DNA of 24,733 nucleotides from a virus (IMGVR_UViG_3300005512_000312:1-24733); one strand, 5' to 3'. Counted from the first letter of the stretch, positions 6,869 through 23,941 are shown. A program made the numbers and translations. The notes: generated by a model not told the origin, from the letters alone.

Positions 6869-7339
6869 TCAGCTCACGTCAATGGACAAAACGATGTCCC
6901 CGTCGGTGATCATCTCACGCACCACATCGCGGACTGCCGCATCGAATGAACTGTCGCCGATAGCGTCCCCGATCCGCTCGTCCACGTCGTCGCCGTCAAT
7001 AAACGATGAACGATCAAAAGCATGCTCGATTTCTTTCTCGACTCGATCATCGACAATCGACTCGACGGCGCGCTCAAAATCGTTGCCGTTCAATACGTCG
7101 TTCATCGCTTCATCAACCATGGACGTGAAAGCCGCCAGTATCTCAGGCTCAAGCAATGCGAACATACCCGCCGTGATGTTCTGGTTTTTTTCAAGGTAGG
7201 AGTTAGCACGGGTGCGCTCCCGCTCGATCTCGATCTCGGCGACGTGCAATTTATTGCGGTATTTCTCAATCTCAGCGCGTAGATCGTCCGGAGTAAACTC
7301 GGCTTTCAACACGTTAGTCATTTCGTTTAAATCAGTCAT
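6869..7339 (-). CDS. Acidic coiled-coil hypothetical protein (156 aa)
   Basis: ORF with leader CAACTACGGGGAA; N-terminal heptads and a very D/E-rich C-terminal half. Confidence 0.8.
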   Translation of the reverse strand: MTDLNEMTNVLKAEFTPDDLRAEIEKYRNKLHVAEIEIERERTRANSYLEKNQNITAGMFALLEPEILAAFTSMVDEAMNDVLNGNDFERAVESIVDDRVEKEIEHAFDRSSFIDGDDVDERIGDAIGDSSFDAAVRDVVREMITDGDIVLSIDVS

Positions 7340-7380
7340 TTTAAATTCCCCGTAGTTGCGGCCGGTATTGGCCAGTCCCG

Positions 7381-7442: not shown

Positions 7443-7619
7443 TTAGCTATGGGTATAGCCGTCGGGTTCAATCCCGAGCCACATACCACACCATCGAATC
7501 ATATAACTGGCGTCAAACGTCGCACGCATTGCACGACGTCGAAACTCCAGAAACGATTGCGCTCCATCGGGATCACGACAGAATACGCGGTGCAGTGATT
7601 CCAATTGCTGTCTGTTCAT
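7443..7619 (-). CDS. Small phage hypothetical protein (58 aa)
   Basis: Start moved to the ATG at 7619 (MNRQQLESL...WCGMWLGIEPDGYTHS), adjacent to the upstream gene's stop. Confidence 0.75.
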   Translation of the reverse strand: MNRQQLESLHRVFCRDPDGAQSFLEFRRRAMRATFDASYMIRWCGMWLGIEPDGYTHS

Positions 7620-7620
7620 C

Positions 7621-7821
7621 TCACATTTCCCCCCAACCGGCCGAGCGTAACCAAGCGTTATCGGCCTCGCTGTCGTCCATAATCCGGCGAACTCGATCCG
7701 AATCCTCACAAGTGTGACACCACACTGGATTGCCGTCGATGCCAGTCGATCCGCACCGGTACTTAACTTCGCGGTAGCTATAACCGCGAGGGACATATTT
7801 CACAATGGTGTTTTCGCACAT
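7621..7821 (-). CDS. Small Cys-rich, possibly Zn-binding protein (66 aa)
   Basis: Start moved to the ATG at 7821 after the AACTACGGGAG leader; MC...CGSTG...CHTC. Confidence 0.75.
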   Translation of the reverse strand: MCENTIVKYVPRGYSYREVKYRCGSTGIDGNPVWCHTCEDSDRVRRIMDDSEADNAWLRSAGWGEM

Positions 7822-7855
7822 TTCAATTTCTCCCGTAGTTATGAAATGAGTTGCC

Positions 7856-7933: not shown

Positions 7934-8524
7934 TTAAGCGGCGACTTTGTCCAGTAGTTTACCGGCGCGACGCTCAATCTCGATCCGGTTATCTTGGTGC
8001 GGAATATCACGGGCAATGGCGGTAATCGCCTGAGCCGCATCCCACACTGATTCCATGGGACGGCCTTCCTCTTTTTCATGCCGTTGCATAGCGGCCTTGG
8101 CCATGCGCTGAGACAGCCCCGCACGCTTGGTCAGAAAGTCCAACCGATCCTCGTCGGTTTTGGCGACGTTCGCTGACTTAGCTTTCTGCACGCCTTCCAC
8201 AAAAGTAGACGTCGCACCAGTCGCAAACGATTGCAGGGCAGGGCGCGCCTCAATGGCGAAACGATCCGGAGCGAACTTGGTGTGGCGAATCTTGATCTCA
8301 TGGAAATTCTCGACGCCCCATAAGTTGCGATTCATACATACGCCACGCAGGTACATGTGAGTATCGACGATCCGAGACTTCATCTGACCGGCGTCGATCT
8401 TCTTGTGAGCCAACATGTCGTCGAGTGTAAGGAAGCGTTCATCTTCAGGGCGGTTGAACCAGTTAGATGAAACAGCAGAGTTGCCGATGCCATGTGCAAA
8501 GGCGTTGGTTTGATAGGTTGTCAT
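7934..8524 (-). CDS. DUF932-family protein, apparently with a large in-frame internal deletion (196 aa)
   Basis: N-terminal VSSNWFNRPEDERFLTL and C-terminal YLRGVCMNRNLWGVENFHEIKIRH...EEGRPMESVWD..QAITAIARDIPHQDNR match the two ends of DUF932 proteins. Central motifs are absent. Start at 8524 follows the AACTACGGGAG leader. Confidence 0.75.
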   Translation of the reverse strand: MTTYQTNAFAHGIGNSAVSSNWFNRPEDERFLTLDDMLAHKKIDAGQMKSRIVDTHMYLRGVCMNRNLWGVENFHEIKIRHTKFAPDRFAIEARPALQSFATGATSTFVEGVQKAKSANVAKTDEDRLDFLTKRAGLSQRMAKAAMQRHEKEEGRPMESVWDAAQAITAIARDIPHQDNRIEIERRAGKLLDKVAA

Positions 8525-8570
8525 AATAAATACTCCCGTAGTTATGACCGAGCAAAATTGCTCACTGGTA

Positions 8571-9127: not shown

Positions 9128-9561
9128 TACAGAATCCTCCCGTCTTCAAGGAACAAGTGTTCATTCATAGACAAGAAATCCTCGAGACCTTCATCGGAAT
9201 ACCGAAACTCCCCGCAGTCGTGACAGACCTTGAGAACAACAGATTCAAGCTCGAGGTGTTGCGCGCTTTTGATCACACAATAATCAGACCACATGCCTGT
9301 CAAAGGACAATCGTCTGCATTGAGTTTGTTCAAGAGGGATTGATTGAAACCGCTAACGCGGATGAATTCGCCGCGGTCGGGGACACTTGAGATTGAATAA
9401 TCCAACGTGCCATCAATGTGATCTGCCAAAGCCTTGAGCGACTGAACAATGTCTTCAAGGTCTACGTCCGCCAAATCGTGCCAGTTGTCCCGCACCCATT
9501 CAAAGACGGCTTCTTTGTTTGGGTGCGAGTCGATTGTGTAAGCCTTTAGTGTGAGTTGCAT
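9127..9561 (-). CDS. Conserved phage hypothetical protein (144 aa)
   Basis: CPLTG and YSDE...NE..F.EDG motifs; ATG at 9561 coupled to the upstream stop. Confidence 0.8.
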   Translation of the reverse strand: MQLTLKAYTIDSHPNKEAVFEWVRDNWHDLADVDLEDIVQSLKALADHIDGTLDYSISSVPDRGEFIRVSGFNQSLLNKLNADDCPLTGMWSDYCVIKSAQHLELESVVLKVCHDCGEFRYSDEGLEDFLSMNEHLFLEDGRIL

Positions 9562-9773
9562 CACAGAAACTCCCAATCAATAGCCGAATCAATCACGTCC
9601 CAGTTGATGCCGTAATTAGCATCAAAGTCGTGACAGATTCTTTCCATAATTGATTCGATCTGATCCATAGTCAGATCAGAATGACCCATCGCTTCCGCCC
9701 GTTCGCGGATGTCGTCTGGATACCAAAGGTCTTCAATGACTAGCGTGCCATTGCGTTTAACTAATTTACTCAT
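9561..9773 (-). CDS. Acidic phage hypothetical protein (70 aa)
   Basis: ATG at 9773 after CAACTACGGGAGG; DFDANYGINWDVI motif. Confidence 0.8.
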   Translation of the reverse strand: MSKLVKRNGTLVIEDLWYPDDIRERAEAMGHSDLTMDQIESIMERICHDFDANYGINWDVIDSAIDWEFL

Positions 9774-9807
9774 CGCCAATTCCTCCCGTAGTTGTTAGCG
9801 AATTTGC

Positions 9808-10888: not shown

Positions 10889-11049
10889 GGTTACATATTT
10901 GTAGTTACATGGTGTAACAGTTTATGTAACCACTGAAAGTCTTGCTATATAAGGGATAGAGCGGTTCGGTTACACGGTTACACCGGTTACGGCTATTTTT
11001 TGCAAATCTGGAACCTTCCTTTTTCTGAGCCATATAAGTAACGAGTAAC
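10889..11049. repeat. Non-coding GTTAC/GTAAC repeat cluster with dyad symmetry (origin- or pac-like)
   Basis: GTTAC at 10890, 10904, 10969, 10977, 10986; GTAAC at 10914, 10926, 11038, 11045. Confidence 0.7.
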
Positions 11050-11055
11050 TTAAAG

Positions 11056-11355
11056 CTATTTCATCCAAGGAAGCTTACCTTCTCGGTAGTCTTTCAACAT
11101 TGCCCGAACCGCTAGAACCCGCCGTATAGAAGGGTCGTACCGTGTTCCGCGATCCGCGGAGCGTGTTAATTGATACAACCATCCTGCCGAAACATTTTTG
11201 CCGTAGTGGTTACACACTGTGTCCGCGATTTCTTCAAAAGTGTTCTTTTTGACTAGTTCTTGAACACCGGTTCGTGTGCCGCGAATCATGGAATCTGCGC
11301 CACCGTCGTTGTCTTCTGGATTAAAAACGAGGTCGTTGAGTTCGTTGTGGGTCAT
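11056..11355 (-). CDS. Hypothetical protein, possible XRE-like HTH (99 aa)
   Basis: AGGAGG RBS; TFEEIA...VSAGWLYQL...DPSIRRV resembles an HTH followed by a P-S/T motif. Confidence 0.6.
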   Translation of the reverse strand: MTHNELNDLVFNPEDNDGGADSMIRGTRTGVQELVKKNTFEEIADTVCNHYGKNVSAGWLYQLTRSADRGTRYDPSIRRVLAVRAMLKDYREGKLPWMK

Positions 11356-11415
11356 ATAGCCTCCTATTTTTTATTATTTTAAATAAAACGTCGGAGGCTG
11401 TCGAGGATAAATAGA

Positions 11416-11754
11416 TTACGCGGCGCGTTCCATCTGCCGTTCCATTTTTTTCCTTAAAGAGGCGGCTTGATCTTTTTCCCATTGCAGATAACGCTCTTGA
11501 TCTGAGCAGGTGACCGTGAGCCACGCATCGTGATCCTTGGCCATTTCATTTTCGATCATGGGGTTTAGATTGTGGGACTTCATACCCAGTTCGAGTTCCA
11601 TTTTGTAGAGATTGGCTTCGGCGAGCCAGTCGAGGGCGAGTTCATGCTCGCCTTTCATCTCGTATTCTTCAGAAACAAATTTGCAGAAGTCGTAGCAGGA
11701 CTGTCCGGTCAGCAGACCGCAGTAGTCCCTGTGAAGTGTAGGTCGTTTTTCCAT
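11416..11754 (-). CDS. Hypothetical protein (112 aa)
   Basis: ATG preceded by the AACTACGGGA leader. Confidence 0.75.
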   Translation of the reverse strand: MEKRPTLHRDYCGLLTGQSCYDFCKFVSEEYEMKGEHELALDWLAEANLYKMELELGMKSHNLNPMIENEMAKDHDAWLTVTCSDQERYLQWEKDQAASLRKKMERQMERAA

Positions 11755-11767
11755 CGGTTGATGTCCC

Positions 11768-11817
11768 GTAGTTTAAAAATTACAGTTTGTACAACAGAGT
11801 TGTAGCTTTTAGGCTAC
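11768..11817. promoter_or_regulatory. Pair of 16-bp palindromic operators (GTAGYTT-NN-ARRYTAC)
   Basis: GTAGTTTAAAAATTAC at 11768-11783 and GTAGCTTTTAGGCTAC at 11802-11817. Confidence 0.7.
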
Positions 11818-11847
11818 AACCCGTTGCGTTTATTGCGTTTACTTCGT

Positions 11848-12024
11848 TTAGCTCCGAGGTTCTTTGGGTCTAAACATGTTGTGTGGGTCGATGTTTTTCA
11901 TCATCGACTCATGGAACATTTTAACATAGGCGTTGTATGCTTCGAGGGCGAATTCGTTTTGTTTTTCTGAGGGGACAAACAAGGCTTGGAATTCCTCTGG
12001 GGTCATATCAATTGTGATCTTCAT
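11848..12024 (-). CDS. Small hypothetical protein (58 aa)
   Basis: Below cutoff: MKITIDMTPEEFQALFVPSEKQNEFALEAYNAYVKMFHESMMKNIDPHNMFRPKEPRS; GGAG RBS, TAATG coupling. Confidence 0.75.
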   Translation of the reverse strand: MKITIDMTPEEFQALFVPSEKQNEFALEAYNAYVKMFHESMMKNIDPHNMFRPKEPRS

Positions 12025-12308
12025 TATAAGTTCTCCGGTTCTGATCTGAAGTTGAGGTCGATCCGGTCGCTAATTGTCGGATCAACCATGATCAGCGGAT
12101 AGCTTTCCTCGGTCGTTAAGTCGTAGACATACACCGGCATGTCGTCGTCCACGACAGATGCCATTGCTTCTATCAGCTCTTGAACGGTTATTGGAGCTTG
12201 CATGGCTCCGAGACGTTCTTTCAATTCTGCAATTTCTTCCCGTAGGGCTTTGGTTTGCAGACGGAGTCGCTTCAGTTCGACGCGTTCGAGATCAGTCATT
12301 AGTGTCAT
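12024..12308 (-). CDS. Hypothetical protein with N-terminal coiled coil (~94 aa)
   Basis: Start moved to the ATG at 12308 (GGGAG RBS, ATGA overlap with the upstream gene). Confidence 0.75.
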   Translation of the reverse strand: MTLMTDLERVELKRLRLQTKALREEIAELKERLGAMQAPITVQELIEAMASVVDDDMPVYVYDLTTEESYPLIMVDPTISDRIDLNFRSEPENL

Positions 12309-12571
12309 TGTCGAATCTCCCGTGGGTTGAACTCTGCTTTGAGTTTTTGCAAGGCTGTGGTTAGACGGACGATATCGTCGAGCGTTAAAGGGTGGTAGCC
12401 GTGGCATACACCATCAATCAACGATTCATGCACCTGATCCAACACCTTCATGGTTTCATCAAGGGCGTCTACGCAAGATTTTGGTAGCCGTGTTTCGCGG
12501 ATCGAGGCCACTCGCTTGTTATGCTTGGCCACCATTTCGTTGTGCTTTTCAACCCATTCATTCTGGTTCAT
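12305..12571 (-). CDS. Hypothetical protein (88 aa)
   Basis: Leader CAACTACACGGGAG and its own promoter. Confidence 0.8.
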   Translation of the reverse strand: MNQNEWVEKHNEMVAKHNKRVASIRETRLPKSCVDALDETMKVLDQVHESLIDGVCHGYHPLTLDDIVRLTTALQKLKAEFNPREIRQ

Positions 12572-12600
12572 TTCGGTTCTCCCGTGTAGTTGAGATTTAG

Positions 12601-12629
12601 AAGGTAATCGTTTATCGCATACATGTCAA
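12601..12629 (-). promoter_or_regulatory. Sigma70-like promoter with an inverted operator motif in the spacer
   Basis: TTGACA-N17-TACCTT; spacer contains TATGCGATAAACG on the minus strand. Confidence 0.7.
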
Positions 12630-12640
12630 CACCCCAGATG

Positions 12641-12703
12641 AAAAAAAGCCCCGAAAGTCATAGGGAACTAACGGGGCTTTGGAGTCAACTACGGGAATAG
12701 TTG
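12641..12703 (-). ncRNA. Putative ~63-nt antisense sRNA (two hairpins, ending in an intrinsic terminator)
   Basis: CAACUA-UUCCCG-UAGUUG-ACUCC-AAAGCCCCG-(18-nt loop)-CGGGGCUUUUUUU. Upstream TTGCAC-N16-TATAGT (12736-12709). UCCCGUAGUUG is complementary to the leader shared by many genes in this window. Confidence 0.6.
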
Positions 12704-12709
12704 TGCAAA

Positions 12710-12928
12710 CTATATCGCTTTATGAGAATTGTGCAAACGTTTTTCGATAACCTTTCGTTCGTTCTCTCTGGCAATCTCACCCACAAGGCGCGCAAATTCT
12801 GTCAGCTCTTCCAGATTTGCAATGTAGCCACGGCATCCGTTCCGCAGGGCGAGTAATGTTCTGTCTTCATCCTTGACGATACCGGCCTTAACGGCCAAGT
12901 CATGGACGATCTGTGCTTTTTTGTCCAC
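12710..12928 (-). CDS. Hypothetical protein (72 aa)
   Basis: ORF tiling with neighbours; GTG start. Confidence 0.65.
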   Translation of the reverse strand: MDKKAQIVHDLAVKAGIVKDEDRTLLALRNGCRGYIANLEELTEFARLVGEIARENERKVIEKRLHNSHKAI

Positions 12929-13118
12929 TGGTATCTATAACGGTCATTCGGCATTGAAAACAATACCGCTTAGTAGAACCGTGATCCGTGATCCGCGTAA
13001 GGTCTCCCATGCAACGCGGGCATTGATTGTTCCGCAGTCGTTCACCGACGGCGTCACTCAATTCGTTTTCTAGCGGTTGTGGATTAAGATCCAGTTGTTC
13101 CTCACTCTTTATCGTCAT
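12900..13118 (-). CDS. Zinc-ribbon protein (72 aa)
   Basis: CPRC...CFQC. Confidence 0.75.
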   Translation of the reverse strand: MTIKSEEQLDLNPQPLENELSDAVGERLRNNQCPRCMGDLTRITDHGSTKRYCFQCRMTVIDTSGQKSTDRP

Positions 13119-13362
13119 CGGTCAGGTCTTTCAGGATGGTTTCAATTTCTTCGGCATCGACTGGCGCGTACAACGCTTCAATTTCTTCGGGCAGTACAAC
13201 CATCAACTGCTCGTCTGAATCGATGGCGTATCCCATTGCACGCAAGAAGTGAGTCAATTCGTACAGCATCGCGTCCAATCCCAACTGTTCGTCGATAACG
13301 AATTGAACACTGCGTAGGCCTTTATTATTGCCGTTTTGGCGAGTGTAATTAAGGGTAATCAT
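13102..13362 (-). CDS. Acidic hypothetical protein (86 aa)
   Basis: AGGAG RBS; FLRAMGY motif common in small phage proteins. Confidence 0.75.
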   Translation of the reverse strand: MITLNYTRQNGNNKGLRSVQFVIDEQLGLDAMLYELTHFLRAMGYAIDSDEQLMVVLPEEIEALYAPVDAEEIETILKDLTDDDKE

Positions 13363-13526
13363 GTGTGCTTCTCCTGTTTTTCAATTTCACGAAGTTCGAG
13401 TTCGAGCCAAATTGCTTTGTCCTCGAGTTCGTATGCGCGTTTCATTTTCTTTCGAGCGTAAGCGCTCAGCATTTTGACGTGTGTGCGTAGTAATTTTTTG
13501 CGGATTTTAGTAACAAATTTGTTCAT
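13359..13526 (-). CDS. Small basic helical protein (55 aa)
   Basis: Below cutoff: MNKFVTKIRKKLLRTHVKMLSAYARKKMKRAYELEDKAIWLELELREIEKQEKHT; ATGA overlaps at both ends. Confidence 0.7.
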   Translation of the reverse strand: MNKFVTKIRKKLLRTHVKMLSAYARKKMKRAYELEDKAIWLELELREIEKQEKHT

Positions 13527-13624
13527 AACGGTACGAATCCAAAAAACGTATAATGGAAAACATATATTAGCCCGATTATTAAAGGCATTAACCAGATTAG
13601 ATCAGGATCGAATTGCGGTTTCAT
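13523..13624 (-). CDS. Small membrane protein (33 aa)
   Basis: Below cutoff: MKPQFDPDLIWLMPLIIGLIYVFHYTFFGFVPL; fills the gap exactly, with an ATGA overlap downstream. Confidence 0.6.
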   Translation of the reverse strand: MKPQFDPDLIWLMPLIIGLIYVFHYTFFGFVPL

Positions 13625-13814
13625 GACGTTCCATTCCCGTCTTGAGCGCGTCGTTAAGTAAAACAATGAGTTGCCACTTATAGTTGTACTCAAATTCTTC
13701 GACGATAATGAGTTCGGGGTTTTCAGATTCGAGTTTGTATTTCCGAATGCGTGGAGGGGAATCGGCGTAAAACTGTGCGTCAGTTCCGTTGTCTGTAATT
13801 CTGTAAACTTTCAT
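13602..13814 (-). CDS. Hypothetical protein (70 aa)
   Basis: AACTACGGGAG leader. Confidence 0.75.
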   Translation of the reverse strand: MKVYRITDNGTDAQFYADSPPRIRKYKLESENPELIIVEEFEYNYKWQLIVLLNDALKTGMERHETAIRS

Positions 13815-13838
13815 TGAACTTCTCCCGTAGTTCCGTGA

Positions 13839-14036
13839 TCAATCGTATACGTTCATCCGACGTGGATCTTTCTTTGGGTTATACGAATGCTTTTTGTCAT
13901 AACCTTTATCAATATAGGTTTCAAAAATCAGTCGCAGTTGTCCAGAAATTGTTCGGCCTTCAGTTTGCGCGATTTCTTTAATGTCTTCATACACATCACG
14001 AGGCACGAGGACGCTTTTCCAACGTTGGGTATCCAT
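13839..14036 (-). CDS. Ribbon-helix-helix (Arc/CopG-like) DNA-binding protein
   Basis: KSVLVPRDVYEDIKEIAQTEGRTISGQLRLIF fits the beta-helix-G-x-S/T-helix pattern; AGGAG RBS. Confidence 0.75.
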   Translation of the reverse strand: MDTQRWKSVLVPRDVYEDIKEIAQTEGRTISGQLRLIFETYIDKGYDKKHSYNPKKDPRRMNVYD

Positions 14037-14059
14037 AAAACTCTCCTAAGATATCTGCG

Positions 14060-14088
14060 ATTATATGCGAACCTATGGGAACATACAA
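14060..14088 (-). promoter_or_regulatory. Sigma70-like promoter of the RHH gene, with tandem TATGSGA sites
   Basis: TTGTAT-N17-TATAAT; TATGCGA at 14064-14070 and TATGGGA at 14074-14080. Confidence 0.7.
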
Positions 14089-14099
14089 GATTTATGCAT

Positions 14100-14122
14100 A
14101 AAAAAGCCGCCCGAAGGCGGCT
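14100..14122 (-). terminator. Intrinsic terminator (UUCG tetraloop)
   Basis: AAAAAAGCCGCCCGAAGGCGGC, identical to 14421-14442. Confidence 0.85.
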
Positions 14123-14143
14123 CTAAGATCCTGGGATTATTTT

Positions 14144-14341
14144 TTAAAAAGTTACCAGTTTTTCTCCTGCATACAGTTGAGCTTTACCGGCTTCATACTT
14201 CTTAACCTGTTGAATAGCTTCCAAGGCGCTTAAATACTTTCTCTTCAGCGGCGGAAATTTATACTCTTTCTCCGCGATGAAGGTGTAAGTTCCTGTTTTT
14301 TTATCAAATTTAAGAAAAGGACTTTCTAACTTTACGTTCAT
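14144..14341 (-). CDS. Hypothetical protein (65 aa), AT-rich moron-like cassette
   Basis: Leader CAACTATGGGAG; flanked by two identical terminators. Confidence 0.7.
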   Translation of the reverse strand: MNVKLESPFLKFDKKTGTYTFIAEKEYKFPPLKRKYLSALEAIQQVKKYEAGKAQLYAGEKLVTF

Positions 14342-14420
14342 TTCGTTTCTCCCATAGTTGTGAAATGAATCTGAAGTGTAACGGATTTGACAAACTAGTA
14401 TATTAATACTTTAGTCTAAT

Positions 14421-14442
14421 AAAAAAGCCGCCCGAAGGCGGC
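14421..14442 (-). terminator. Intrinsic terminator downstream of the DNA polymerase gene
   Basis: Same sequence as 14100-14121. Confidence 0.85.
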
Positions 14443-14483
14443 AATCATCAAGGGAGTCAAATGAAATCGAAGCAGTAGCTTGC

Positions 14484-14520
14484 GTAGTTTTTAAACTACA
14501 GGTAGTAGCTTAAAAGCTAC
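14484..14520. promoter_or_regulatory. Second pair of 16-bp palindromic operators
   Basis: GTAGTTTTTAAACTAC at 14484-14499 and GTAGCTTAAAAGCTAC at 14505-14520; half-site GTAGCTT at 14475. Confidence 0.7.
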
Positions 14521-16409
14521 ACTGCTTCGCCCCAACTGGGTCCGATTTCTACATCGCACTTGTTAGGTACTTCCAAAGATACCGCAGACTCCATAATGTG
14601 TGCAATTTGCAGTGCATCATTTTTGTCGGTGACTGACATGGCGATTTCATCATGCACTTGCACCAGTGGGATACGCCCCGTTTTGTAAATATTGACCATC
14701 GCTTGCTTGGTCATATCGGCCGCCGACGCTTGAATCAGGCGATTCAAGGCTTTGTATGTGAACGCACGCTTGAGTCGCGTGGTATCGCCATACTCTTTCA
14801 CGGCATCACGGTAGGGCAAGGCTTTGTGCATGACGAAGCTGTCTGGCTCCCACAGGTCAAAGCGACACTTGCGGCCTAGAATCGAGCGGATCGATCCAGA
14901 CGCATCTTTTTCGTTTAGTCGATTCATTACGCCGTTCATCAAACCTTTCACAAAAGGTACGCGGTCGTGGTACTGGTTAATCAAGCTTTTGGCTTCCTCA
15001 ACCGGTATGTCCAACTGATCGGCCAGTTTATTAACGCCCATCCCGTACATCATGCCCAAGTTAATGGTTTTGGCTTGCTTCCGTCCAATACCGGCCATCT
15101 CCGCCACCATCGTATGGAAGTCAGTGCTTGGGTCGTCGTTGTATTTCTGCACGAAATCCTTGGCTCCCTGCAATGGGATACCGCGCGCTTTGCCATACAC
15201 ATGGGCATAGTGAACCAAGATCCGTGGTTCCTGTTGCGAGAAATCGATGGCCGCCCACTGCTCACCTTCTTCCGGTAAGAACAAACTGCGGATCATCGGC
15301 CCCAGTTCTGGATCGCGGGCCGGTATCTGTTGCAGGTTGGGGTTGTTCATCGACAGCCGGCCTGACACCGTGCCGCCTTGATCAGACCGGTTTTGGTTGA
15401 TGTGGCCGTGGATGCGTCCATCGTTGTTGCAATATTTTAAAATATTATTGATAAACGTCCCCGACGTCTTATTGATGTTGCGTGCTTCAACAATCAGTTT
15501 TGCAAAAGGGTTTTGTTGCTCTGCGAGAAACGTCTTCGTGAACGAAGGCGCGCCTTTCTCCGTCTTAGGATACGCAATCCCGAGTTCGTCGAACGCTTTA
15601 GATAACGATTGTGCCGCCCAGATTTCAACGCCGAACCCCGCTTGTCGCTTGATTTCTTTGTGTAATTCCGCCTCGCGCTTTAACAAGGCGTCGCGTGTAC
15701 GCTCGGTTTTGTCCATATCAACGCGGACACCACGGTAGGTCATGTCTACTAAACACGGCAGGAGGTCGAGTTCGAGGTTGACGATATCCCAAAGCCCCTG
15801 CTTGCCCACTTCCACACGCATGTAATTCCAGAGTTCGAGCGCCAACTGCGCGTCAACTTCTGCATAAGGCCCAACATACATGGCCGGCATCTTCCACATC
15901 TCTGCTTTTGGATCGAGACCGAAGGTGCGTGCCGCTTCAACCAAGTCTTTCTCTGATTTGGTTTTACCTAAAATGTCAAACGACAGCGCATTGAGGCTGT
16001 AACTAAAGCGGTTTTCGTCCAACAAACTGGCAATCAACATCGTATCGACAATGCGGCCGTTCAACTGAAAGCCTTCTCGTTTGATCCAACCGGCATCGTA
16101 CTGCGCGTTATGCATGACTTTTTCACAAGGCAGTTCAAAAACCTTCTTGAGCCACTTGCTTATAATTCTTTTGTCTAAGTTACCGCCGCCTTTATGCCCG
16201 ACAGGAATATAACCAGACCAATCCTCGGTCGCGATAGCATAACCAACCACCTCGCCGTTACCTGTCGCCCATCCCGGACCCATCGTTTTGATGTCCGGGT
16301 CGCGCGTTTCCACATCGATAGCAATACGAGTCGCACTGCTAAGGTCAGGTAGCTCGGCCGGAGGCACCCATTCTGTTTTCGGCGTAAACATCGCCATTTG
16401 CAAACTCAT
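14517..16409 (-). CDS. polA: Family A DNA polymerase with 3'-5' exonuclease domain
   Basis: Exo motifs IDVET, HNAQYD, YAEVDA; SGRLSMNNPNLQQIP; motif A DFSQQEPR; motif B RKQAKTINLGMMYG; motif C VHDE. Confidence 0.97.
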   Translation of the reverse strand: MSLQMAMFTPKTEWVPPAELPDLSSATRIAIDVETRDPDIKTMGPGWATGNGEVVGYAIATEDWSGYIPVGHKGGGNLDKRIISKWLKKVFELPCEKVMHNAQYDAGWIKREGFQLNGRIVDTMLIASLLDENRFSYSLNALSFDILGKTKSEKDLVEAARTFGLDPKAEMWKMPAMYVGPYAEVDAQLALELWNYMRVEVGKQGLWDIVNLELDLLPCLVDMTYRGVRVDMDKTERTRDALLKREAELHKEIKRQAGFGVEIWAAQSLSKAFDELGIAYPKTEKGAPSFTKTFLAEQQNPFAKLIVEARNINKTSGTFINNILKYCNNDGRIHGHINQNRSDQGGTVSGRLSMNNPNLQQIPARDPELGPMIRSLFLPEEGEQWAAIDFSQQEPRILVHYAHVYGKARGIPLQGAKDFVQKYNDDPSTDFHTMVAEMAGIGRKQAKTINLGMMYGMGVNKLADQLDIPVEEAKSLINQYHDRVPFVKGLMNGVMNRLNEKDASGSIRSILGRKCRFDLWEPDSFVMHKALPYRDAVKEYGDTTRLKRAFTYKALNRLIQASAADMTKQAMVNIYKTGRIPLVQVHDEIAMSVTDKNDALQIAHIMESAVSLEVPNKCDVEIGPSWGEAV

Positions 16410-17535: not shown

Positions 17536-19047
17536 TTATAGTTCGTAGCTCCTCGACACATCTTCTGGTTCAACAATAAACAGGTTTTCTCGCGCCCGAG
17601 TCACTCCGACGTAGAACACACGATGTAAATCATCAGGATTGTTCCGCGCCGCTTTTTCGGCCGCCGGAGATAAATCTGTAAAAAGTACAACGTTGTCGGC
17701 CTCCCCACCCTTTGATCCGTGAATCGTGGACACTGTAATGCGAGGCTCACCATTGAACTTTTCCCCGCGACGCAAGAGCGCGATGATGTACGCCCGATCT
17801 TGCTCCGGTAGCTTATCCATTGCGACGTGCCAGATCATCTCTTTGTCAGCGTTAAGGCCGTGGTCCGCGATCAGCGTATCGAGATCCACCATATCTTCGT
17901 CGGCAAGCGCGGGCAGTTTTTTGAACCCCCGTGCGATCCGCTCTTTAGCGCTCATAAACGAGTAAATGTTGCGCGCGGTTTTGCCGGAGACTTCGCGTCC
18001 TTTTCTCAAAGCTTCCCAACCGTTGACGGCGTCTGCCACCTTTTCAGAGATGGACCGGTGTCCGCGGTAGTTGAACAGATAGCCGTTTGACTTGAGGTCG
18101 GTCGCAACTGGCGACAACTGGTACCCCGCTTGAGACAGGATCAGCCATGATCCGTCAGCCATGTCGATTCCATCGATGGTGGATATCCGCGTTACTTGCC
18201 CCCGATCTGACTTTGGCTCATAACGTTTCGGAAACCGTCGGCTAATCCGGTTGGAGATGTTCTCTGCTACAGCGTGAACTGACGACGGTATGCGGTAGGA
18301 CTGTGCAAGGATTTCAGATCCGCCATCCAGATTGATGAAATGATCAACGTCTGCCCCTGCCCAACGGTAGATGGCTTGGTCGTCATCCCCCGCGCAATAC
18401 ATTTTATCGGACATGCCGTCCAGAATATGTGCGATGTCCCACTGGAGTGGAGACAAATCCTGTGCTTCGTCTAAGAAGGTCAGCTTGAATCGATGTTTAA
18501 AACTAGGCGCTTGCTCGACAAACAGCTCTAACATGTCTGTAAAATCGAATAGTTTGTACATTTCTTTGTACTTGCGTAAGGATTGATCCACATAATTAAC
18601 AGTGTTCCAATCTCGATCCAGTTCGCTTTCGTTGTACTGCTCGCGCAAATCTACCTTCCGTAGACGCGCCAAGTTAATCAGCCCAAGGATCGGATCACTG
18701 GTTTTCGCTAGATCCATAAAATCGTCAGATCCCCGCGTCGAACCAAAGAGTTCCACGCCGATGGCATGGCTTAGTTCTTTGTAGTTTTCCGGTTGCATGA
18801 TCTGACCCGAACTAATGTCGGTCATTGACAAGGCAAGGCTGTGCAATGTCCGAAAGTAGACAAGGTCGTGCTTGGCATCAAGCCCGAACCGCTCTGCCGC
18901 GCGCTCTTTTGCTTCTGTCGCCGCTTTCTTGGTGAAGGCAAGGAAGGCAATCTCTTGTGGCAATACGCCCGATTCGAGAGCCTTATCTACCATATTAAGA
19001 AGCGTTGTTGTTTTTCCTGTTCCCGGAGGCCCGAAGATTCTGAACAT
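17536..19047 (-). CDS. UvrD/Rep-like superfamily 1 helicase
   Basis: GPPGTGKT, AFTKKAA, DEAQD, GDDDQAIYRWAGA, QSYR, STIHGSKGGE, YVGVTRAR. Confidence 0.95.
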   Translation of the reverse strand: MFRIFGPPGTGKTTTLLNMVDKALESGVLPQEIAFLAFTKKAATEAKERAAERFGLDAKHDLVYFRTLHSLALSMTDISSGQIMQPENYKELSHAIGVELFGSTRGSDDFMDLAKTSDPILGLINLARLRKVDLREQYNESELDRDWNTVNYVDQSLRKYKEMYKLFDFTDMLELFVEQAPSFKHRFKLTFLDEAQDLSPLQWDIAHILDGMSDKMYCAGDDDQAIYRWAGADVDHFINLDGGSEILAQSYRIPSSVHAVAENISNRISRRFPKRYEPKSDRGQVTRISTIDGIDMADGSWLILSQAGYQLSPVATDLKSNGYLFNYRGHRSISEKVADAVNGWEALRKGREVSGKTARNIYSFMSAKERIARGFKKLPALADEDMVDLDTLIADHGLNADKEMIWHVAMDKLPEQDRAYIIALLRRGEKFNGEPRITVSTIHGSKGGEADNVVLFTDLSPAAEKAARNNPDDLHRVFYVGVTRARENLFIVEPEDVSRSYEL

Positions 19048-19198
19048 TCTTGTAATCCTTCAAGTTATCTTCAACATGTTGAACGATTTGACGTACTCGC
19101 TCGCGCGACAGGCCCATACGTTTCCCAATTGCGGTTAGCGTCATGTAATACTTTTTCCGCATTTCGTAGATCTGAAAATTTCTGTCTTTTTTATCCAT
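18995..19198 (-). CDS. Sigma70 region 4-like HTH protein
   Basis: MTLTAIGKRMGLSRERVRQIV. Confidence 0.85.
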   Translation of the reverse strand: MDKKDRNFQIYEMRKKYYMTLTAIGKRMGLSRERVRQIVQHVEDNLKDYKNVQNLRASGNRKNNNAS

Positions 19199-19445: not shown

Positions 19446-20977
19446 CAGAATGGGGCCTCTTCTTGGTTAAACTTAGGTTTCAAATCCACGTCTGCTGATT
19501 CAAACGCCGGTATAGACCACACGCGGACGGCACGTCCTTTGATCTTCAGCACCGTGCTTTCGCCGCTGATATCGCGTAAGCGTTGAGCGATTTTGTGTGA
19601 TTTAAATTCAAAAAACTTATTCTTGCGGAGATGCGCTTCAAAGTCCCGCAGTCTGAAATAGGTCTTATTGGAGTCCTCGTCGGTCCACGGGCGGCGAAGC
19701 AAGATTTCTTCTTTGTCCTGCGCTTGCTGTAGGTGGCGACAAAACTCTTCGAGGTAATCATAGAACTGCCCCGAGGTCGACGCGTCCTGCGCCACTTCCA
19801 TTACCGCGCTTTCGTTGTCCCGCATTTCAGACATTAGAGTGCTAATTCGACTCTCCCAGTTCTGCTTCGAGACCGTGCGCGGCATAAAATTAAGTTGCTC
19901 CATACACGCTTTTTGAAAAGTAGGTTGCGAAAGGAGCGCGTCAGTGTCGAGTTCCAAAGGCTCCCCGTTAACGTCCATAAACCAGACAGGCGGTGTCGAG
20001 TTGTATTTTCGCAAATTTGCAACGGAAGCCCCTGCCGCCGCCGAAGCAATACCGAATTTACGCGTCTGGCAGAGATCTTTGTTGCAGTGCGCGCAGATCG
20101 GGGCATCAGAACATCGGTATGCGTAGTCCTTTTTCTCAAGTTGTTTCGCAACAGTGTTAACTTCGTTGAGTGGCAACGGCGGGTCCAGAAACTGCCCGTT
20201 ATATTCGAGTATCTTGCTTTCCCATTCATCGGGATAAGCTTTCCGTAAGTAGACGCCCAAGTTGAACAGCCCATTGTTTCGGCCTCCTTCTGAAATCTTT
20301 TGTCTGCATAAATGCTGTAAGCATGGCGGACCGTCTTTGACGATGATATCCGAGCTGTTGGTATCTTGCGTTAAGGTTCCGATCTGCTCCGGAGTCTGCA
20401 CATGCGCGTCGTAGAGCTGATAAAACTCTTCCAGAGTAGCTGAGGTGCCGTCATCTTTAATTGCGTAGCGTAGGCCGTCCTCTGCGTCGTAGTAAGGCAA
20501 ATTAAGAAAGTTACCAATGTCGCCCCGATCCAGATGAAGTTTCACCTGCTTTGGAAAAATTTCGCTATTACCGTAACCGAGAGCCGTAGAAATGTGTTGC
20601 AAAGTCTCCTGCATCACCTTGGCTTCAATCCATTCGGTCGTAAACAAAAAGCAATGCGCGCCGCCCGATTTAGATCGGCATACCACTAATGGCAGTTTCG
20701 CTTGGCGTATCTTCGCAACAAGGTCTGTGTGATCAAGCGGATACTGGTCGATGTCGATACATCCCCAGACGCAACAGTTATCCTCGTTAATCGGAATAAT
20801 ACCGATGCCCTTGCCAGTTCCTGACAAGTGACCTTCCCATAGTTCCGTGGTCCGCGTTTCGCGAATGACGGCCGCTTTACCGGCGTTCTTGCCGCTTTGC
20901 GTCTGTTTTTCTATTTTGAAAGTTCCGTATGCCTGTTCTAAACCGGCAAAGATGGAACTAAATTTTTCGACTGACAT
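19445..20977 (-). CDS. Archaeo-eukaryotic primase-family protein with PriCT-like domain
   Basis: WGCIDID (DxD), CRSKSGGAH, NFLNLPY, PPCL...EGGRNNGLFN. Confidence 0.85.
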   Translation of the reverse strand: MSVEKFSSIFAGLEQAYGTFKIEKQTQSGKNAGKAAVIRETRTTELWEGHLSGTGKGIGIIPINEDNCCVWGCIDIDQYPLDHTDLVAKIRQAKLPLVVCRSKSGGAHCFLFTTEWIEAKVMQETLQHISTALGYGNSEIFPKQVKLHLDRGDIGNFLNLPYYDAEDGLRYAIKDDGTSATLEEFYQLYDAHVQTPEQIGTLTQDTNSSDIIVKDGPPCLQHLCRQKISEGGRNNGLFNLGVYLRKAYPDEWESKILEYNGQFLDPPLPLNEVNTVAKQLEKKDYAYRCSDAPICAHCNKDLCQTRKFGIASAAAGASVANLRKYNSTPPVWFMDVNGEPLELDTDALLSQPTFQKACMEQLNFMPRTVSKQNWESRISTLMSEMRDNESAVMEVAQDASTSGQFYDYLEEFCRHLQQAQDKEEILLRRPWTDEDSNKTYFRLRDFEAHLRKNKFFEFKSHKIAQRLRDISGESTVLKIKGRAVRVWSIPAFESADVDLKPKFNQEEAPF

Positions 20978-22486: not shown

Positions 22487-23941
22487 ATGAATTTTGAAAA
22501 CTACGAATTTAAGACCAAGCCGTATGACCATCAGCTTAACGCGCTACGCGACTCGTGGGCCGCGGAATACTATGCGCTGTTCATGGAGATGGGAACGGGG
22601 AAGTCGAAAGTTGCTATTGATACAATGGGTATGCTGTATGAAAAGGGTCATATCGACGCGGCGCTCATCGTTGCTCCGAAGGGTGTTTACGATAACTGGA
22701 TTCAGAAAGAAATAAAAGTTCATTTGCCGGAACGTATAACGCGGAACGTTATACGTTGGACACCAAACTCAGGAAAGGCGTACCAAGAAGATTTAGCTCA
22801 ATTGGTATATAAAAAGTTTGATGGAATCAAAGTGTTAGTCATGAACGTCGAGGCGTTTTCCACTCCTCGTGGTACACGATTAGCCGAAGAGTTTTGCGAT
22901 AAGAACCCGAACAACCTAATTATTGTTGACGAATCGACAACGATTAAGAACAGGAAGGCACAGCGGACCGCGAATATTATGTCGCTGATGAAGAAGAGTA
23001 AGTATCGTCGTATCTTAACTGGTTCGCCAATTACCAAGTCACCGATGGATTTGTTTAGTCAATGCGCGTTTTTGTCGCCCAAGGCTCTGGGTATCAATTC
23101 GTATTACGGCTATCAGAATCGGTACGCCGTTGTGCAGAAGCGGACGATGGGTCACAAAAGCTTTAATGAGATCACCGGCTACCGTCGTCTGGATGAGCTA
23201 AACGAAAAACTCGATAAGTTCAGCAATCGCGTGCTGAAGTCAGACTGTTTGGACTTGCCAGATAAAGTGTACATGCGGCGGAACGTTAGCCTGACCGATG
23301 AGCAAGCCAAGGCGTATAAACAGATGCAGAAATTGGCTCTGGCAAAGCTGGAGTCCGGTGAGTTATCCACAACTGCATCCGTTTTGACTCAGATTATGCG
23401 CTTACAGCAAATTTGTTGTGGACATCTTCCTGACGATGCTGGTGATTTGCATACTTTAAAGAGCAATCGTTTGTCAGAACTGCTTGATATTATTGAAGAA
23501 ACGTCTGGCAAAATTATTATCTGGGCGACATTTACTCATGACCTGAAGTCAATTCACTCAGAGCTGACCAAGCGGTACGGGGGGGGCTCGTCCAGTATCT
23601 ACTTTGGTGAGACGCCGCAGGATGAACGGCAGGCGATTGTTGATCGGTTCCAAGATCCCGACAGCGAGCTACGATTCTTTGTTGGTCAGCCTCGAACTGG
23701 CGGTTACGGCATTACTCTGACCGAAGCAAGCACTATGATCTATTACAATAACGGTTACGACTTAGAAATACGCTTGCAGTCAGAAGATCGCGCTCACCGG
23801 ATTGGTCAGGAAAAGAACGTCACCTACATTGATATCGTCACGCCAGACACCGTGGACGATAAAATCCTTGGTGCCTTACGCGAGAAGATTGATATTGCCG
23901 GTCAAGTGCTTGGGGAAGACACTAAGACTTGGTTGATCTGA
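22487..23941 (+). CDS. SNF2-family (SF2) helicase
   Basis: MEMGTGKS, DEST, LTGSP, RLQQI, GGYGITL, QSEDRAHRIGQ; start moved to the ATG at 22487 after GGGGAAAG. Confidence 0.95.
   Translation: MNFENYEFKTKPYDHQLNALRDSWAAEYYALFMEMGTGKSKVAIDTMGMLYEKGHIDAALIVAPKGVYDNWIQKEIKVHLPERITRNVIRWTPNSGKAYQEDLAQLVYKKFDGIKVLVMNVEAFSTPRGTRLAEEFCDKNPNNLIIVDESTTIKNRKAQRTANIMSLMKKSKYRRILTGSPITKSPMDLFSQCAFLSPKALGINSYYGYQNRYAVVQKRTMGHKSFNEITGYRRLDELNEKLDKFSNRVLKSDCLDLPDKVYMRRNVSLTDEQAKAYKQMQKLALAKLESGELSTTASVLTQIMRLQQICCGHLPDDAGDLHTLKSNRLSELLDIIEETSGKIIIWATFTHDLKSIHSELTKRYGGGSSSIYFGETPQDERQAIVDRFQDPDSELRFFVGQPRTGGYGITLTEASTMIYYNNGYDLEIRLQSEDRAHRIGQEKNVTYIDIVTPDTVDDKILGALREKIDIAGQVLGEDTKTWLI

Follow-up and report, generated by a model that had tools for sequence, protein, structure and literature searches.

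A contig of 24.7 kb from an uncultured marine phage carries, on its minus strand at positions 12641 to 12736, a real, conserved and structured element. It is fairly likely that this unit is transcribed, as predicted, into a small RNA (sRNA) of about 64 nucleotides, and that the seed of this RNA, UUCCCGUAGUUG, pairs with a leader, CAACUACGGGAG, found before eight to ten of the phage's own genes, by doing so occluding their Shine-Dalgarno (SD) sequences. Because the core of the RNA mirrors the leader tag, and because both change together in relatives, it is likely to be an sRNA that turns the translation of those genes down. The unit is probably, in other words, a multi-target phage sRNA with a seed that co-evolves with a start-associated leader, and repression, as the usual outcome of pairing at an SD sequence, is its presumed effect. 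Behind this reading stand direct observations of the anatomy of the unit, its conservation, the compensatory changes in its helices, the invariance of its seed core and the lineage-specific match between seed and leader.

Genome context and anatomy of the unit

The window (the whole stretch of DNA that was analysed, 24,733 nucleotides, which is the entire record for this genome) has a G+C content of 48%, and nearly all of its genes lie on the minus strand. They are arranged in the order primase, helicase, polA-type DNA polymerase (16409..14517), approximately 8 kb of small ORFs, small terminase, large terminase and portal. Searches with megablast and blastn found no DNA match to the window among 50,697 phage records; the nearest cultured polymerases are those of Phage DSL-LC04 (56%) and Pelagibacter phage HTVC023P (51%), and the CRP-901 roseophages lack the polA-type polymerase of the window. 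Relatives of this polymerase are encoded in an estimated ~2100 IMG/VR stretches. A 67-aa ORF at 18995-19198 on the minus strand is made up of nothing but a sigma-70 region 4 domain (PF04545, 32.2 bits against a cutoff of 24.1), and a small 'sigma-G factor' gene in DSL-LC04 is its syntenic counterpart.

All of the elements that the original prediction had described (a promoter, a hairpin, a linker and a terminator) are present on the minus strand, and are given here together with their immediate neighbours:

12710 to 12928, minus strand: upstream ORF of 72 aa, without a match to any family; the sRNA promoter overlaps its 3' end
12731 to 12736, minus strand: -35 hexamer TTGCAC of the predicted, sigma-70-like sRNA promoter
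12709 to 12714, minus strand: -10 hexamer TATAGT, separated from the -35 hexamer by a 16-nt spacer; the TAG stop of the 72-aa ORF (12928..12710) falls within it
12641 to 12704, minus strand: predicted sRNA of ~64 nt, its start placed by the spacing from the -10 hexamer and its end by the T-tract
12686 to 12703, minus strand: 5' hairpin CAACUAU-UCCC-GUAGUUG (DNA CAACTATTCCCGTAGTTG), from the fold
12686 to 12697, minus strand: seed UUCCCGUAGUUG, the antisense of leader CAACUACGGGA(G) and the 'opposite copy' of the plus strand
12681 to 12685, minus strand: single-stranded linker ACUCC (AC[UC]C[CU] in relatives), from the fold and from comparison
12641 to 12680, minus strand: intrinsic terminator AAAGCCCCG-loop-CGGGGCUUUUUUU (GCCCCG-N18-CGGGGC-T7), with stems that vary by compensatory changes in relatives
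12601 to 12629, minus strand: next promoter, TTGACA-N17-TACCTT, with a TATGCGATAAACG box in its spacer, which drives the first leader-bearing gene downstream

Five nucleotides separate the -10 hexamer from the hairpin CAACTATTCCCGTAGTTG. The 73-nt stretch folds as two hairpins (-25.2 kcal/mol, z = -6.4), and none of 200 shuffles folds as well. The hairpin had originally been drawn with an exposed 'UUCCCG loop'; the hairpin itself stands, with a stem of 7 bp and a UCCC tetraloop, so that the supposed six-base loop is in fact closed by a U-G pair. Judged in silico, the unit has the attributes that define an sRNA gene, namely its own predicted promoter and an intrinsic terminator, without a conserved ORF.

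Read on the plus strand, the copy at 12686 might instead be the ribosome-binding site (RBS), or a promoter-like element, of a real gene (TTG at 12701, 51 aa) that begins 4 nt after a GGGAA. This is very improbable: the start is a TTG and the spacer is only those 4 nt, the ORF ranges from 22 to 93 aa and is missing in one relative (L006), its N-termini are dissimilar between two subgroups, and it has no PHROG hit and runs antisense to a conserved ORF. A plus-strand gene served by this copy, which the original prediction had named as a possible objection, is not borne out, and since the ORF is not conserved that objection falls away.

A second pyrimidine-rich stretch, AUACCCAUAGCUAA, lies at approximately 7447-7460 on the minus strand, in the 3' end of ORF 7443..7619 and just before a terminator (7440-7414). 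It is also found in L026, complements CUAUGGG only, and is probably a chance occurrence.

Leaders before the phage's own genes

Seven minus-strand genes (starting at 14341, 13814, 11754, 9773, 8524, 7821 and 7339) have the leader, (C/T)AACTACGGGAG, at 7-9 nt before their ATG, and variants of it precede one to three more. Gene 12571, directly downstream of the unit, has a variant with a 2-nt insert, CAACTACACGGGAG, and genes 12308 and 6745 have weaker look-alikes; with these set beside the seven clear leaders, the '8-9 genes' that had been proposed to share it is a fair figure. The eight leaders are given below, each with the net energy of its pairing with the seed (the hybrid energy plus both opening energies):

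14349 to 14360, minus strand: leader CAACUAUGGGAG of gene 14341..14144, net -11.0 kcal/mol
13822 to 13833, minus strand: leader GAACUACGGGAG of gene 13814..13602, net -7.1 kcal/mol; in a 5-nt intergenic gap, without a promoter
12579 to 12592, minus strand: variant leader CAACUACACGGGAG of gene 12571..12305, net -3.1 kcal/mol
11763 to 11774, minus strand: leader AAACUACGGGAC of gene 11754..11416, net -5.8 kcal/mol
9783 to 9794, minus strand: leader CAACUACGGGAG of gene 9773..9561, net -10.7 kcal/mol
8533 to 8544, minus strand: leader UAACUACGGGAG of gene 8524..7934, net -6.4 kcal/mol
7830 to 7841, minus strand: leader UAACUACGGGAG of gene 7821..7621, net -8.7 kcal/mol
7347 to 7358, minus strand: leader CAACUACGGGGA of gene 7339..6869, net -8.9 kcal/mol

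When AACTACGGGA is sought with at most one mismatch, the window has 12 matches against 1.27 expected, a number that none of 100 shuffles reaches. Of six exact copies the minus strand holds five; the sixth, on the plus strand (12687-12696), belongs to the single opposite copy (12686-12697). Because the leaders stand 7-9 nt from the ATG, and because one of them (13833) sits in the 5-nt gap inside an operon, the motif tracks start codons and not promoters. Three more near-matches (7950, 17415 and 20835) fall within ORFs. Inside the primase gene, a leader-like GGAACTATGGGAAGGTCAC (20827-20844, minus strand) is followed by an in-frame TTG that would give a 460-aa form, and may represent an internal start or chance.

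The predicted targets, small ORFan genes, are dispersed over 8 kb in the region that separates the DNA polymerase from the terminase. Family hints were obtained for only 3 of the 10, all of unknown function (Kyano_Gp96, above the Pfam cutoff, and DUF932 and CotH, below it), and the label of an 'early or host-takeover regulon' that the original prediction had attached to them is unsupported. Of that interpretation as a whole, what holds is the conserved, structured, ORF-less unit resembling an RNA gene, with its covarying seed; the 'early or host-takeover' role finds no support.

The eight leader genes have net energies of -3.1 to -11.0 kcal/mol, against -1.9 kcal/mol or weaker for the other 30 starts (the two weak look-alikes among them, at -1.0 and -0.5 kcal/mol), a contrast that arises partly by construction. 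The UCCC loop is free, and in the clade of the window the hairpin stem takes up 7 of the 12 seed bases; opening of the 12-nt seed costs 5.7 kcal/mol. Under this energy model, pairing between seed and leader is feasible despite the stem. In a single metatranscriptome run, which consists of contigs only (0.15 word share) and so cannot reveal a small RNA, contigs from relatives extend over most genes in 11000-14500 and cover next to nothing of 12638-12754.

The spacers of promoters in the window carry a palindrome-like box, TATGCGATAA(A/G)CG(CATA), as in TTGACA-tgTATGCGATAAACGat-TACCTT at 12601-12629 (minus strand). Reversed forms of it, TTGCGTTTATCGCATAAT and TTGCGTTAATCGCATAGT, lie upstream of the leaders at 7358 and 9794 (minus strand), and the box is also found in promoters of distant polymerase relatives; it looks like an operator for a regulator.

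Conservation and covariation in relatives

The exact 18-mer hairpin is present in 24 IMG/VR stretches, in 23 of them within a context like that of the window; the occurrence in L021 was set aside as an unrelated coding match outside that context. The 23 have in common the order TTGCA[AC]-N16-TAT[AC][GA]T, hairpin, AC[UC]C[CU], variable terminator, TTGACA promoter and leader-bearing gene. Searches that were blind to the hairpin led to the same unit. A search with the pattern of the downstream promoter returned 19 contigs, all with the hairpin, and a search with the upstream 72-aa protein returned 25 loci (protein 55-97% identical), 21 of which have the identical 18-mer. The other four (G006-G009) have no such unit, hairpin and leaders both being absent, and since the polymerase of G006 is only 52.6% identical this absence is a weak test of co-occurrence. 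Each of five larger relatives (G001-G005) has exactly one exact antisense copy, accompanied by four to six exact sense copies in four of them and by none in the 27 kb of G002. A search of IMG/VR for variants of the loop (CAACTA-N6-TAGTTGAC) gave 118 loci, among which only five TTCCCG matches lay in context; the rest were unrelated coding matches and were discarded.

The promoter is likewise retained. TTGCA is found in 18 of 18 distinct relatives, with -10 forms of TATAGT or TATCAT (TATAAT, TATATT or TATACT in more distant homologues). The upstream ORF of L265 and L266 has an earlier stop, so that the hexamers there lie in non-coding DNA, outside any ORF, and yet TTGCA-N16-TATAGT is kept. In L266 (a contig of L011), a tandem duplication of ~33 bp at ~1900-2060, in which tgtcttttaaatcaaagaaaaaatgagcgcga occurs twice, cuts the upstream ORF short; it sits immediately upstream of the sRNA promoter.

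A wider survey, of 81 loci linked to the polymerase, looked for a CCGTAG core that is rich in pyrimidines and has a terminator after it, with the conserved terminator loop GGTTGCCCCC as a second anchor independent of the seed. Of the 45 related marine phage contigs with at least 2.5 kb beyond the polA-type polymerase, at least 37 have a homologous unit 0.3-2.3 kb downstream of the polymerase; this census is a curated one, because both automated terminator detectors were noisy (26 and 33 of the 45). No unit was found in six of the 45 (L056, L059, L087, L093, L101 and L104), and that of L066 and L075 is uncertain. Each of the 27 units that were folded, from 27 loci, consists of a 5' hairpin, a seed region and a terminator, and homologous units are preceded by a sigma-70-like promoter of the form TTGC[AT][AT] ... 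TATAAT-like. When 23 representatives are aligned, no block other than CCGUAGU is invariant outside the terminator.

The helices of the unit are maintained by compensation. In the largest clade (ten sequences), 98.3% of the 180 cells are paired (24-55% when the partner is slid) and four pairs have changed on both sides, while for the terminator of the CUCC clade (eight sequences) 94.4% of cells are paired (33-56% when slid) and three pairs have changed on both sides. Only the gene-sense strand accommodates the G-U pairs and the T-tract. A fold of the mixed 23-sequence alignment with RNAalifold, in which the seed pairs with the terminator (four pairs, -2.08 kcal/mol), was rejected as a misalignment artefact. 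Two loops are conserved in their own right: GGUUGCCCCC is the invariant terminator loop of the CUCC-type lineages (L047:12345-12433, L030, L049, L052, L058 and L060), where it mostly follows UUC or UAC, and GCCCCCAAG is shared by the 5' hairpins of the largest UCCC clade (L054, L063, L077 and others). These loops could be second seeds or protein-binding sites.

Given this arrangement, the unit might act solely in cis, as the 3' end or terminator of the upstream operon or as the attenuator leader of the next gene, with its complementarity to the leaders having no function in trans. The stop of the upstream ORF lies inside the -10 hexamer with the hairpin immediately after, and in CUCC-type lineages the RBS of the next gene abuts the terminator without a promoter of its own, both as such a reading would have it. 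However, the promoter hexamers are retained where they are non-coding, the gene upstream of the unit differs between clades, the clade of the window has a separate strong promoter after the terminator, and a plain terminator needs no invariant CCGUAGU that tracks the leaders of its genome; a purely cis-acting unit is therefore considered unlikely.

The units carry one of two seed alleles, (U)UCCCGUAGU and (U)CUCCGUAGU. The count of their association with leaders takes in all loci with a readable unit and at least one start-associated CUACGG leader, to which L031 was added by hand. At the 14 loci with a UCCC-type seed, UCCCGUAG, there are 36 CUACGGGA leaders and no CUACGGAG leader; at the seven with a CUCC-type seed, CUCCGUAG, there are 20 CUACGGAG leaders and no CUACGGGA leader. 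Seed type thus agrees with leader type at 21 of 21 loci, through a double compensatory change (GGGA:UCCC to GGAG:CUCC) that is common to the seed and to at least four dispersed leaders per genome. On a FastTree phylogeny of the polymerase a single change (support 90) suffices to account for both alleles, so that the concordance of 21 loci is one event and not 21 independent ones. The question posed at the outset, whether the loop changes to match when the leader changes in relatives, can accordingly be answered in the affirmative, with the main switch counted as a single evolutionary event. Relatives that keep the leaders and lack the antisense element, which would have spoken the other way, number none among the 15 loci with at least two leaders.

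Further matches are specific to single lineages. In L077 the leaders are xUACUAC (four of four) and the seed is GUAGUAG, and none of 37 other seeds fits as well; L086 has leader AUACGGGAG with seed CCCGUAU, a match that rests on one leader, and in L029 seed and leader match perfectly over 13 bp. Pairing is retained through two G-U wobbles, despite mismatches at the level of DNA, both in L045 (seed CUUCGUAGUUGA, leader UCAACUAUGGAG) and in L068 (seed CUCUGUAG, leaders CUAUGGAG), and throughout the family a U of the seed stands opposite the last G of the leader. Within one allele type the match of the flanks is weak (10.8 contiguous pairs for a phage's own seed against 10.2 for other seeds), the own seed being better than seeds of the same type at 14 of 22 loci. 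Wherever seed and leaders can both be read, the seed of a phage is complementary to the leaders of that same phage, except that no clear match is seen in two cases: the homologue in L073 has a divergent seed and no clear matching leader among 19 starts, and for L088 the available 1.5 kb contains no leader that matches. In silico, the unit shows a conserved seed that matches its predicted targets and varies with them, as expected of a trans-acting base-pairing sRNA.

Covariation of this kind might also arise if the motif were the site of a sequence-specific protein, which might bind DNA or might be a translational regulator that binds RNA, of the RegA/CsrA kind, with the reversed copy as one more such site, and if sense and antisense copies had changed together because the specificity of that protein had changed. 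The single switch on the tree would also follow from such a change, a separate palindromic box in the unit promoters indicates that protein regulators are clearly at work, and the phage encodes the protein with sigma-70 region 4 only. Nonetheless, the sense copies stand at SD spacing, even within an operon, and the reversed copy is always housed in a promoter-hairpin-terminator unit with compensatory helices, neither of which is what a protein site would call for. In L045 and L068, moreover, seed and leader differ as DNA and still pair through G-U, the seed U opposite the last G of the leader is kept throughout, and an RNA-binding protein would not bind the complement of its site. A sequence-specific protein as the reader of the motif is thus held to be improbable, and an sRNA that pairs with the leaders remains the preferred reading.

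Proposed action and comparison with known systems

The proposed sequence of events is as follows. Host RNA polymerase would transcribe the unit from the TTGCAC-N16-TATAGT promoter. The C-rich free UCCC loop, or else the linker, would nucleate on the GGGAG of a leader, after which the 7-bp stem would open and pairing would extend over CUAC(AA), covering the SD sequence, so that translation of the dispersed small ORFs would be lowered. The RNA could in this way serve as a common dial, or timer, for the small genes between DNA polymerase and terminase. In the CUCC-type lineages, in which the next gene comes right after the terminator, it may double as the attenuated 5' leader of that gene.

The timing of phage gene expression is usually attributed to promoters, sigma factors and protein repressors. 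If the reading offered here is correct, a leader common to many of the phage's own mRNAs would let one RNA address them, as a compact post-transcriptional switch, in a widespread family of marine polA phages (an estimated ~2100 IMG/VR stretches with a linked polymerase). Its natural seed alleles, UCCC and CUCC, would provide a ready-made orthogonal pair for reporter experiments, and possibly for synthetic control of translation.

Concerted control at the ribosome-binding sites of many mRNAs has a precedent in phage T4, in which the translational repressor RegA and the endoribonuclease RegB act at the RBSs of many of the phage's own mRNAs for their joint shut-down. Those effectors are proteins, whereas the effector proposed here is an RNA, with specificity in a conserved leader. 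A second precedent is the c4 RNA, which is processed from an operon transcript, has its targets within the immI operon and is, like the predicted product of this unit, a phage-encoded antisense RNA directed at a ribosome-binding site. The c4 RNA of P1 and P7 is described as acting in trans, its exposed sequences blocking the RBS of its target, the ant mRNA (PMC12197685); as far as that account goes, it differs from the present unit, which has 8-10 dispersed predicted targets with a shared leader over 8 kb.

A covariance-model scan against Rfam 15 gave no hit at gathering score in the whole window, in agreement with the earlier impression that the RNA does not belong to a recognised named family; C4 was absent both from the matches at that score and, in 12540-12800, from those with E up to 10. 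The best sub-threshold match is to sX13 (RF02232), over its full length, at 21.5 bits against a gathering score of 50, and it was not reproduced in L054 or L047 (E up to 1). The sX13 RNA of Xanthomonas is described as a multi-target sRNA whose exposed C-rich motifs repress mRNAs with G-rich motifs at the RBS, and, in common with Spot 42 and alpha-r7, as being encoded beside polA in bacteria (PMC3771888). From that description, it resembles the present unit in setting a C-rich motif against a G-rich RBS and in its polA neighbourhood (here, 0.3-2.3 kb downstream of the polymerase), and departs from it in being a bacterial gene with three stem-loops and a 4C/4G match, in contrast to a leader-specific seed of 9-13 nt. 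The sRNA2 of PAK_P3 was considered as an RBS-targeting analogue and dropped, as the relevant part of its own paper contradicts this. Literature searches outside subscription journals returned no description of a phage regulon of leaders and sRNA of this kind.

In the cultured phage with the closest polymerase, DSL-LC04 (L267), the CUAC leader is absent. A different RBS context, ACATAC(A/T)GGAGAAA, is repeated there before three to five genes (positions 23296, 23885 and 24790), with no reversed copy in the 25.8 kb examined.

By arrangement, the closest analogue is found in the start-associated sequences (SAS/ESAS) of Cluster K mycobacteriophages (Pope et al. 2011, PMC3203893). In the sections of that report drawn on here, SAS is an asymmetric 13-bp sequence, GGGATAGGAGCCC, that includes the SD core and lies 3-7 bp before the starts of 11-19 non-structural genes; nearly all copies share one orientation, the K1 phages having a single opposite site away from gene starts, and approximately half have an upstream promoter or inverted-repeat element. 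The same sections leave the partner of SAS as 'either RNA or protein' and propose no RNA partner, and passages from 2024 and 2025 still call the role of SAS unknown (PMC11373665, PMC12699233). The two systems are not members of one family: the SAS consensus GGGATAGGAGCCC is unrelated to the leader CAACTACGGGAG, and so is the host. Unlike the opposite site in the SAS description, the reversed copy in the window is part of a defined promoter-hairpin-terminator unit, and it changes together with the leaders.

The genome of the Cluster K phage Anaya (JF704106, L268) has 16 sense copies of SAS at up to two mismatches. Its sole reversed copy, GGCCTCCTATCCC (59870-59882 of the record), is on the gene strand, in a gene-free gap of 385 bp between gp96 and gp97, just after a GC-rich hairpin. 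By analogy, this copy may mark an anti-SAS RNA, which is to be taken as a lead and not as a test. It is possible, if not quite probable, that leaders combined with one anti-leader sRNA represent a general and repeatedly evolved phage device, a self-addressed translational regulon by which a phage gates its own dispersed genes. The abundant marine polA-phage family, in which seed and leaders co-evolve, would be one instance of it. If so, the lone reversed SAS of the Cluster K mycobacteriophages would be accounted for in the same way, and their start-associated sequences are thereby provided with a testable hypothesis.
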